64,000 bases of DNA from an uncultured bacterium (lineage in GTDB: Bacteria; Bacillota_I; Bacilli_A; RFN20; CAG-826). A model generated the notes under the pieces. It saw nothing but the letters and a program-made list of their open reading frames with translations. It was not told where the DNA came from and searched no databases. Below are positions 30,037-33,540 of the stretch, piece by piece; position 1 is the first letter of the stretch; each line of letters opens with the position of its first letter. The position numbers and the translations under genes were made by a program. The stretch covers positions 85,598 to 149,597 of the forward strand of contig CASERQ010000004.1 of NCBI GenBank assembly GCA_949290395.1, written 5' to 3'.

Positions 30037-30465
30037 AAGTGTTGAAAACTAATTAGCAATTTAATACTAATGAGATAATTTAATTTTTTTATTGTAATTG
30101 ATAACACAAAGTTTGAAGAAAATTTACTTTTCTATCTCCATCCTCTGGAATTGTATTTTCTGACAAAAATGTCTATATTTTTAATAGTTATTTTGGAGGG
30201 AGAAAAGTTTCTTTTCTTAAGTTATATGAAAAAAATTAATACCAATTTATTGTTACTTTGTGTCAGCAGTGTTCTAGGTTTAAGCTCTATTGCACTTTCT
30301 AGTACAGCTATTGCTTTAAGCACTCAAGTAAGTGCGGAAAAGGGAGAGACGGGAGAGCAAGGTCCACAAGGCGAACAAGGCCTTCAGGGTGAACAAGGAG
30401 AAAAAGGCGATAAAGGCGAGACAGGCGAACAAGGCCTTCAGGGTGAACAAGGAGAAAAAGGCGAT

Positions 30466-30568
30466 AAAGGAGATACAGGTGAACAAGGTCCTCAAGGGGA
30501 ACCTGGAAAAGATGGTAATGGCATTGAAAGCATAGAATTAACAAATTCATCTGAAGGCGTAGATATGG
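30466..30568 (+). repeat. Direct repeat copy 1 (103 bp, exact)
   Basis: AAAGGAGATACAGGTGAACAAGGTCCTCAAGGGGAACCTGGAAAAGATGGTAATGGCATTGAAAGCATAGAATTAACAAATTCATCTGAAGGCGTAGATATGG. The sequence recurs at 30894-30996 (spacing 428 bp, not a multiple of 3). Confidence 0.85.
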
Positions 30569-30893
30569 AAAAGATGGTGCTCAAGGAATTCAAGGTGAAA
30601 AGGGCGAAAAAGGTGATGCCACAGAAGTAAAAGTTGGTGACAACGGCAATTGGTTCATCGATGGCGTTGATAGTGGAGTAAAAGCCGAAGGAGTTCCTGG
30701 CGATACTCCATATATTGGTTCTAATGGAAATTGGTACATTAATGATGTGGATACAGGAGTTCCTGCACAAGGCCCAAAAGGCGACAAAGGTGATACTGGT
30801 ATAGATGGTGAAGACGGATTAACTCCTCATATAGGTGAAAACGGAAATTGGTGGATTGGAGAAACAGACACCGAAATTCCTGCTACTGGCCCA

Positions 30894-30996
30894 AAAGGAG
30901 ATACAGGTGAACAAGGTCCTCAAGGGGAACCTGGAAAAGATGGTAATGGCATTGAAAGCATAGAATTAACAAATTCATCTGAAGGCGTAGATATGG
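30894..30996 (+). repeat. Direct repeat copy 2 (103 bp, exact)
   Basis: Identical to 30466-30568. Confidence 0.85.
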
Positions 30997-33540
30997 CACA
31001 AAAACGACATTTACTGTTACAAATGGAAAAGATGGTATTTCAATTACAGGAACAGAAATTGATGAAAACGGACATTTAATTGTTAGTTTTTCTGATGGCA
31101 AAAAAGTAGATGTCGGTGAGATAGTGGATAAGACTCCTGATAAACATTTAGTTACTTTACATTTAGAAGATGATAAGATTTTTACTCAAGAAGTTTATGA
31201 TGGTGAAAAAATAATTTTACCAAATGATGGGGAATTTGCGGGATATATTATTAAAAACTGGCATTTTGCTTCTTTAGATGGTGATATCTGGTCAATAAAT
31301 ATAAACCGAGTTTATGAAGATATTGATTTATATGCTGAGTTTGAATATGAGACATATAATGTTACTTTCTTTGATGGAAGTTTCGGAAATGAAGTTGCAA
31401 ATCATACCTTTACTTATAATCAACCATATGTTTTGCCATCAATTAGCGAAAAAGGATACGAATTAAAAGGTTGGCAAACAGAAGATGGAACTTTGATTCC
31501 TAATAGTAGTATTTGGAATTTTAATGATGTCACTGAGCTATATGCTCTTTGGGATTCAGAAAAGTATACAATTACTTTAAATCCGAATGGAGGAACAGTT
31601 AGCCAAGAAACAGTTTCTGTTACATATAATAATGATTATGAATTTCCTATACCTGAAAGAGATGGTTACACTTTCTTAGGATGGTATGACTATCAAGATA
31701 ATTTTATAAGCGTTAAATCAGTATGGAATTACTCTGTCGAAGATTTAGTGTTAACCGCTAAACGGTCTAGTCAAGAAAGATTATTTGTATTAGATGCTGG
31801 TCGTGGGCAGTTCGATGATCCTACTTATTCTGGTAATCGAGCTGAAATAACAATAGAAGAATTGGGACTTTATAATTTACCATCTGCTTACTTTAACCCT
31901 TACCAAACTGCTTATGGTATATATCTAAAAAATTGGCTTTTAAACGGCGAAGCAATACCAATGAGTGGCGATGAGTTCAGGTATGCTGAAAGAGGGTACA
32001 TGGTTGCCGATTATGAAACATATACTGAAAGCAATAACGACTATTATCTTGAAGATTTTGGCGAAGGTTATTTAGTAACTGGTAGGAATACACTTAAATC
32101 AGAGCCTAAAGTTGTGAATAATCTTCCTCAAACTTATAATGGAAGACCAGTTATAGGATTAAGTTCTGAAGTATTTGCTTATTGTACATCATTAACAAGC
32201 GTGATAATACCGGAAGGATATACTGAAATTGGTTCAGGATGTTTTTGCTTATGTGAAAACTTAAATGCAATTAAACTTCCAAGAAGTCTTTTAACTATTG
32301 GTGATGGTGCTTTCGTAGATTCGGGTATATCCAGGATTAATTTACCGGATGGTCTCACTACTATAGGTTCAAGTGCTTTTTCTTTATGCTTTCTTGACGA
32401 ATTTATTATGCCAGATTCTGTTACAGATGTTGGTAGTAATTGCTTTTCAAACGGAGGTGTCACTGGAAATTTAAAAATATCCAATAATCTAGCGAAAATT
32501 CCTGACAGCTTTTTGGAGTATGGACATTTTGAATCTATTGAGGGCGGTATTAATGTACAGGAAATAGGCGAAGCCGCTTTTAGTTATTCCGGTAGTAATT
32601 TCGAATTCAATTTACAAACTTTGTGGCCAAAAGTAAGTAAAATAGGAAATTATGCTTTCCGAAGTGCCAGTCTTGGAAGCGTTTCATTAAATAAAAATCT
32701 TCGTGAGATTGGGGAAGGTAGTTTTCATACATTCTCATCTGATTCAGATTTAATTTTATACGACAAAGTAAACTCACTTGGTTACGAGGTTTTCTCAAAC
32801 GCCAATTTAAATTCAATTACTATTTTATCTGATTTGAGTGAAATACCAAATGGCACCTTTAAATCTGCCAATATAAACTCTATAAATCTTTTTGGCGAAA
32901 TTAATGGTCTAGGAGGATTTAGTTTTGAAACTTCAACTTTTGAAACTTTAGTCTTCCCGGATTCTTTGAAATATATAGGCAACCTAGCGTTTAACAATTG
33001 TCAATCACTAAAAGAAATTATATTGCCGGAAACCGTTATTTCAATTGATGATAGCGCGTTTATTGGTTGTACTAACTTAACTAAGGTTGATATTTCAAAA
33101 ACTAAAGTTGATTTACTGTGGAACACTTTTAGCGGTTGTAGTAATTTGGTTAATGTAAAATTGCCACAAACATTGAAAACACTTTGGCCTTATACGTTTG
33201 CAGATAATTCTAAATTAGAAAATATCGTATTACCAAATGGTTTAGAGGAAATAGGCGAATACTGTTTCGAAGGTTGTGAAAGTCTAAAAACCATTTATAT
33301 TCCAAAAAGTGTAACTAGAATTGGTGGTTATGCTTTCTCTGGTTGCACAAATTTAACAATATGGTGTGCAGTTGACACAAGACCAGAAGGATACGATACC
33401 ATGTGGTTTGGAGATGCACAAAAAGTTATCTATGGTAAGGAAGAATAGCTGTATTATTCGCATGTATATTGCTAAAAATAACTATATTGACAATTATATT
33501 TATGATTTTAAGGTAGAAATTATCTGAGTATTTAAAGAGA

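Follow-up and report, generated by a model that had tools for sequence, protein, structure and literature searches.

Two apparent frame changes at an internal repeat of a surface-protein gene from an uncultured Bacilli-like bacterium, very probably a local assembly error

The interrupted gene and its repeat

The window analysed here is a 64-kb stretch (64,000 nucleotides, nt) of contig CASERQ010000004.1 from an uncultured, Bacilli-like bacterium (31% G+C, standard bacterial code). On its forward strand it carries a surface-protein gene at 30226-33448 that is read in three frames as assembled. The gene contains an exact direct repeat of 103 nt (30466-30568 and 30894-30996, spacing 428 nt), and this pair is the only exact repeat of at least 99 nt in a repeat scan of the window. 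The open reading frame (ORF) that starts at the ATG at 30226 is in frame 1 and runs to a stop at 30630. Homology with other proteins switches to frame 0 at about 30567 and to frame 2 at about 30995, and then runs on to a stop at 33448; this gives an apparent -1 frame change after each repeat copy. The 13 nt before both frame changes are identical (GTAGATATGG). An earlier sequence-only reading had reported the repeat, its spacing and the frame drop after each copy, and these are confirmed in the window sequence.

All three segments of the gene are on the forward strand. The 5′ segment (30226-30565, frame 1) encodes a signal peptide (residues 1-37), a collagen-like G-X-Y run (about 30343-30516; Pfam Collagen match at residues 40-97) and the start of module 1. 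The middle segment (30566-30993, frame 0) encodes a second collagen stretch, three GxNGNW(F/Y/W)I..D(T/S)G units and the start of module 2. The 3′ segment (30994-33448, frame 2) encodes the remainder of module 2, three Flg_new repeats (best stretch 31565-31762) and a BspA-type LRR_5 region (about 32120-33400, best stretch 32969-33358), and it ends with a TAG stop.

A -1 shift at both junctions gives a product of 1074 amino acids (aa), close to the ORF of about 1070 aa that had been proposed to result from single -1 shifts. In this product Pfam LRR_5 (PF13306) is matched in four stretches (E = 7.6e-103, 339.8 bits, cutoff 27.7), Flg_new (PF09479, the Listeria-Bacteroides repeat) in three (E = 2.7e-21, 75.9 bits, cutoff 27), and Collagen (PF01391) with 44.5 bits (cutoff 27.2), so the earlier description of a collagen-like and leucine-rich-repeat (LRR) surface protein was correct. 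The proposed shifts do not restore the true protein, since the shifted product is without the core of both repeat modules. Two paralogs in the window (14939-17116 and 20865-22967) have the module intact, as G-x-DG-x-GI..I.LT..EGNVD-TYTIxFTDGxxTTFTVTNG followed by collagen triplets and GENGNWFIDGVDTG, and the parallel drawn earlier with their VDTYTI..TDG..TTFTVTNG module holds. Relative to the paralog module, junction 1 lacks the entire TYTI...TVTN core and junction 2 lacks TYTITFTD.

Sister assemblies and breakpoint positions

Seven near-identical sister assemblies, obtained from other samples, cover the gene. Six are IDBA-type scaffolds (L003, L004, L005, L006, L015, and L016) with records named scaffold_N (ENA analyses ERZ162680xx-82xx), and the seventh is a Logan contig (L007); L004 is the same scaffold as L017. 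The sister contigs were reached through a cluster of 100%-identical protein fragments and by way of the adjacent SpoU methylase gene. Within the surface-protein gene their divergence from the window is 0-0.5%, and identity across the region is 97-99.4%.

Alignment with these contigs indicates what is absent at each junction. Junction 1 (30565-30566, forward strand) is without 52 nt (CTTATACAATTACTTTTACTGATGGCACAAAAACGACATTTACTGTTACAAA) that are present in L004 and L006, and junction 2 (30993-30994, forward strand) is without 22 nt (CTTATACAATTACTTTTACTGA) that are present in L004, L006, L015, and L016. The two joins as assembled in the window can be recognized by the diagnostic strings GGCGTAGATATGGAAAAGATGG and GGCGTAGATATGGCACAAAAACG. 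Adding the 52 nt after 30565 and the 22 nt after 30993 yields a 3297-nt ORF of 1098 aa with zero internal stops. The restored ORF holds a 165-nt perfect direct repeat with a spacing of 480 nt, in frame, which spans the end of a collagen stretch and a collagen-flanked surface repeat (CFSR) module. In offsets within this repeat, the absent bases are 101-152 at junction 1 and 101-122 at junction 2. Each forward-strand copy in the window is therefore the first 99-100 nt of the true 165-nt repeat followed by ATGG, and these last 4 nt of the 103-nt repeat are a chance identity of two different right-hand partners. The restored protein matches Pfam CFSR (PF19079) in two stretches with 24.2 bits (E = 3.9e-5), just under the cutoff of 27. 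Both matches span nearly the whole 49-position profile, the best one covering positions 1-48, and the deleted version in the window had no match to CFSR in the same Pfam search. The Collagen match rises to 51.8 bits in the restored protein.

The assembled spacing is 428 nt because 52 of the 480 nt were lost at junction 1. It had been proposed that a duplication with this spacing, which is not a multiple of 3, had itself made the frameshift; this is not supported, as the real spacing of 480 bp is a multiple of 3. Tandem duplication of a 428-nt unit was likewise rejected, given a shared stretch of only 103 nt and a true period of 480 nt. A homopolymer sequencing error (a base missing in GGAAAAG or CAAAAAC) was also considered, and an inserted base does restore the frame. 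It was rejected because the sisters show 52 and 22 nt to be absent, not 1 nt, and the paralog modules agree. The right-hand ends of the two copies are different, which led us to reject gene conversion as a way of spreading a lesion from one to the other.

Lesions at the repeat differ from assembly to assembly. In the window, copy 1 joins offsets 1-100 to 153-165 and copy 2 joins 1-100 to 123-165. L005 begins in the spacer downstream of copy 1, and its copy 2 joins 1-100 to 153-165, a 52-nt deletion. In L003, copy 1 runs to 137 and resumes at 164-165 (26-nt deletion), and copy 2 joins 1-139 to 100-165 (40-nt tandem duplication). L004 joins 1-6 to 68-165 in copy 1 (61-nt deletion) and 1-27 to 67-165 in copy 2 (39-nt deletion). 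L006 starts as a scaffold at offset 67 of copy 1, and its copy 2 reads 1-53, NN, and 67-165. Copy 1 is outside the coverage of L015, L016, and L007; in copy 2, the L015 and L016 scaffolds start at offset 67 and the L007 contig at offset 136. Thus, five of the seven sisters have a private lesion, an N-gap or a scaffold end within the repeat that differs from the window's. The window's copy-1 lesion is seen again in copy 2 of L005, and none of the window's lesions reappears at the same copy in another assembly. The closest relative, L004, has 60 mismatches to the window in 10.7 kb and exactly four indels, all of them in the repeat copies. Independent assemblies are mutually discordant at this site, with a gap in L006 and scaffold or contig starts in L006, L015, L016, and L007.

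Indels of at least 10 nt within the gene all fall in the two repeat copies, except for one in-frame 54-nt collagen unit in L003. This unit belongs to a tandem repeat of 54-nt period in the collagen run (30369-30502, forward strand), identified by TRF and alignment, of which L003 has one unit fewer. The exact stretch is 48 nt, which is short enough for k=100, and the unit loss is therefore probably a real copy-number difference. Another small difference is a 1-nt deletion at window position 31064 in L006 and L007 (GATGAAAAC to GATAAAAC), which gives a premature stop. It was recovered by two assemblers, in an ENA scaffold as well as in a Logan contig, and both have the same 774-aa product. Unlike the window lesions, it is probably a real frameshift in the L006/L007 strain.

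Breakpoints were measured from the boundaries of each strain's own exact repeat, with a positional ambiguity of 1-2 nt at the junctions. All five left breakpoints lie 99 nt past the first base of the strain's exact repeat. Three of these are at offset 99-100 (both window copies and copy 2 of L005). The other two are in L003, which has a single-nucleotide polymorphism (SNP) at offset 38 of copy 1; exact identity starts at 39 in this strain, and both left breakpoints are at 137 (39+98). The six right breakpoints or scaffold starts (two each in L004 and L006, one each in L015 and L016) are all at offset 67 (165-99+1), 99 nt before the repeat end. A distance of k-1 = 99 is thus obeyed in 11 of 11 cases. 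The chance of eleven such coincidences is about 1e-19, a rough estimate for random breakpoints with at most about 3 in 165 positions allowed per site. The untrimmed side of every join obeys this distance, and the trimmed side ends at offsets 6, 27, 53, 98-100, 123, 153, and 164. In both window joins, as in that of L005, the sequence resumes with ATGG.

Beside a repeat, unitigs in a de Bruijn graph with k=100 have to end at these 99-nt offsets. A k=100 contig overhangs into the repeat by k-1 = 99 nt, which is why the assembled copies stop at the junctions. IDBA-UD with -maxk 100, a setting that has been documented (PMC5220378), fits both the even k of 100 and the scaffold_N names. For the Logan contig k is 31, and its start lies 30 nt before the repeat end, as this k predicts. 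All 31-mers of Logan contigs are distinct by construction (PMC12424806), so this start indicates that, in the reads of its sample, neither copy has lost the 3′ part of the module.

Assembly error weighed against biological causes

We are confident that the gene is intact in the organism and that the two frame changes are a local assembly (scaffolding) artefact, not a pseudogene, a switch or programmed frameshifting. Three candidates had been listed from the sequence alone (a genuine pseudogene, a mis-assembled or collapsed repeat, and a slippage-prone switch), and mis-assembly is the sole one backed by comparison of the sister assemblies. The 165-nt repeat is too long for a k=100 graph to traverse. 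In such a graph, a contig that enters from the left halts after k-1 = 99 nt of the repeat, and the contig that leaves begins 99 nt before its end. The ambiguous 165-nt repeat node was probably dropped, and the scaffolder then probably joined flanks that truly overlap by 33 nt while trimming an overlap estimated from insert size. Such trimming would have removed an excess of 52 nt at copy 1 and 22 nt at copy 2. Both numbers are 1 mod 3, which results in an apparent -1 change exactly at the end of the assembled repeat. Local scaffolding errors of IDBA-UD include Ns placed between overlapping flanks and errors in protein genes that contain repeats (PMC7111523; Chen et al., 2020).

Several points weigh against an assembly origin. 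That reads do not support the junctions GGCGTAGATATGGAAAAG and GGCGTAGATATGGCACAAAA is itself an inference, and the assembler of the window's own contig is deduced solely from the 99-nt signature. A rule for the position of the trimmed side was sought across the joins, and none was found. The intact 1098-aa form is a composite of several assemblies, and protein searches found an uninterrupted ORF of the gene in no database assembly. Real inactivation is also plausible in principle, as the gene is dispensable and one strain has a real 1-nt deletion.

These last two facts are what a genuine pseudogene, in which real deletions of 52 and 22 nt inactivated an accessory surface-protein gene, can draw on: the gene is missing between pgm and the HAD hydrolase in five assemblies of the same species (L008, L009, L010, L021, and L022), and the deletion at 31064 was recovered by two assemblers. 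Constraint is also not demonstrated by dN/dS, with 0-12 substitutions in 2322 nt between strains being too few. Inheritance, however, is not seen, since L004 has the window's missing bases together with lesions of its own, and the 52-nt deletion that affects copy 1 in the window affects copy 2 in L005. Breakpoints that lie exactly 99 nt from repeat boundaries, that are moved by an SNP specific to L003, and that coincide to the nucleotide with Ns and scaffold ends are not expected of a pseudogene, as no known biological process counts 99 nt from the start of perfect identity. We therefore consider a pseudogene very unlikely. Real lesions could also arise if the 165-nt repeat were a hotspot of recombination or template switching that gives a new frameshifting deletion or duplication in each host population. 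The k-1 = 99 distance would then be coincidental, and we regard this as more doubtful still; if true, it would mean that an accessory adhesin is switched off without a simple-sequence tract.

Hypervariable on/off switching, with the internal repeat as a slippage or template-switching hotspot and different frameshifting indels per population, would account for a lesion, gap or scaffold end in the same module of about 165 nt in the window and in five of the seven other assemblies, and surface adhesins are typical targets of phase variation. The sequence at the junctions does not resemble such a switch. Neither junction has a simple-sequence tract; homopolymers reach at most 5 nt, no short tandem unit has four copies, and TRF finds only the 54-nt and 9-nt collagen periodicities, upstream of the junctions. 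Junction microhomology is just 1-2 nt, and the indel sizes are irregular (22, 26, 39, 52, 61, and +40 nt). The 99-nt spacing, the scaffold ends and the NN gap belong to an assembly graph and not to a cell, and according to the k=31 contig the 3′ end of the module is intact in each of the two copies in its sample. Switching is thus extremely improbable. Programmed -1 ribosomal frameshifting or transcriptional slippage at GTAGATATGG would explain why the same 13 nt precede both changes and why both are -1. Neither overlap window has an X XXY YYZ heptamer in the incoming frame, and no A/T run is longer than 5 nt. The shift is not conserved, since the sister loci stay in frame at both sites, and a product made by shifting would be missing the core of each repeat module. 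We give this explanation negligible weight.

Gene product, strain variation and related systems

The restored product is a secreted surface protein of about 1098 aa, encoded by an ordinary accessory BspA-type adhesin-like gene. The order of its parts is a signal peptide, a collagen-like stalk, two collagen-flanked modules separated by G-X-Y and GNWxI units, three InlB-type B-repeats, and a BspA-type LRR region. A role as an adhesin is presumed from its domain families. Protein searches identified intact homologues of 1000-1500 aa with matching domain order (P0002, P0004, P0009, P0014, and P0016), which are 27-33% identical and cover 87-96% of the query, except for P0016 (68%). Named matches are recorded as 'MAG: ... 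[Bacilli bacterium]'. One cluster is 100% identical, and its members are fragments of 774, 831, and 894 aa. With the restored N-terminal 380 aa as query, neither a near-identical fragment nor an uninterrupted orthologue was found, and the top match had 67% identity across one third of the query. Scanning a genome collection with the 774-aa part returned only distant LRR proteins of Alistipes and Flavonifractor, and no species representative in it carries the gene. A scan of JGI metagenomes with a conserved 28-mer had no match.

Both window paralogs are intact lipoproteins with repeated collagen-flanked modules, GENGNWFIDGVDTG units, one Flg_new repeat and a C-terminal DUF6273. Several database members of the paralog clusters are fragments from contigs of 2-3 kb, which indicates that these repeat-rich genes also break short-read assemblies. 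A 158-nt direct repeat with 94% identity (20841-20998 and 23001-23158) brackets the paralog gene at 20865-22967. Its second copy begins a truncated 5′ gene fragment (ATG at 23026) that ends in ...NGKDG-CYLKYYLVF*. L003 (1976-2148) has a single copy and is without window positions 20999-22986; the difference may reflect a genuine deletion or insertion event between the repeats, or it may be a further assembly collapse. L003 also has an extra gene of about 1.06 kb at 18025-19083, encoding a Fic-domain protein of 352 aa, which is absent from the window at about 38953-39024.

The gene is carried in a strain-variable block (about 30041-33550) that is bounded by the pgm terminator on one side and by the 3′ end of the HAD-hydrolase gene on the other. 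In the five assemblies without the block, the pgm terminator runs straight into the HAD-hydrolase gene (4546-4637 in L008), and the HAD hydrolase has 274 aa compared to 273 aa in the window. Among carriers there are 0-5 mismatches per 500 nt in the gene body (31000-33500) and 10-33 per 500 nt in the flanking housekeeping genes for TrpRS and CysRS (34000-37000). This suggests that the gene allele spread recently through recombination or transfer.

The importance of this case is mainly in quality control. The deposited sequence divides one gene for a 1098-aa surface protein into three ORFs, and databases already list fragments of 774, 831, and 894 aa as separate proteins. In metagenome-assembled genomes of this kind, such errors would distort counts of pseudogenes, phase-variable loci or programmed frameshifts. 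Comparing breakpoint offsets from exact-repeat boundaries between assemblies, as a k-1 spacing test, reveals this class of error without reads. The ra2.py tool of Brown et al. (2015) is reportedly intended for local scaffolding errors in short-read metagenome assemblies, especially those of IDBA-UD.

The restored protein shares GxDGxSIVSIxxTxSxGLVDTYTITYSDGSxSTFTVTNG modules and GENGNWxIGDTDTG units with collagen/Flg_new/LRR_5 homologues of uncultured gut Bacilli and Clostridia. It has a plain signal peptide, whereas these homologues and the two window paralogs have a lipoprotein signal, and unlike the homologues it has only two modules. Phase-variable contingency genes that use slipped-strand mispairing are similar in that a surface-protein gene is seemingly off through frameshifts at repeated DNA, but here there is no simple-sequence tract or variation in unit number, and the lesions bear an assembler signature. 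Programmed -1 frameshifting, as in dnaX, insertion sequence (IS) elements and phage tail G/GT genes, shares two features with this locus, namely that both changes are -1 and follow identical sequence. It differs in that the present locus has no slippery heptamer, is not conserved in this respect among near-identical loci, and has domain cores absent at its junctions. Scaffolding errors of the IDBA-UD type agree with the locus in all essential respects: the site is an internal perfect repeat in a protein-coding gene, Ns occur despite overlapping flanks, the consensus at the join is presumably unsupported, the records have scaffold_N names, and the breakpoints are those of maxk = 100. No essential difference was identified, and the present case is unusually clean, with eleven breakpoints in seven assemblies at k-1 = 99.

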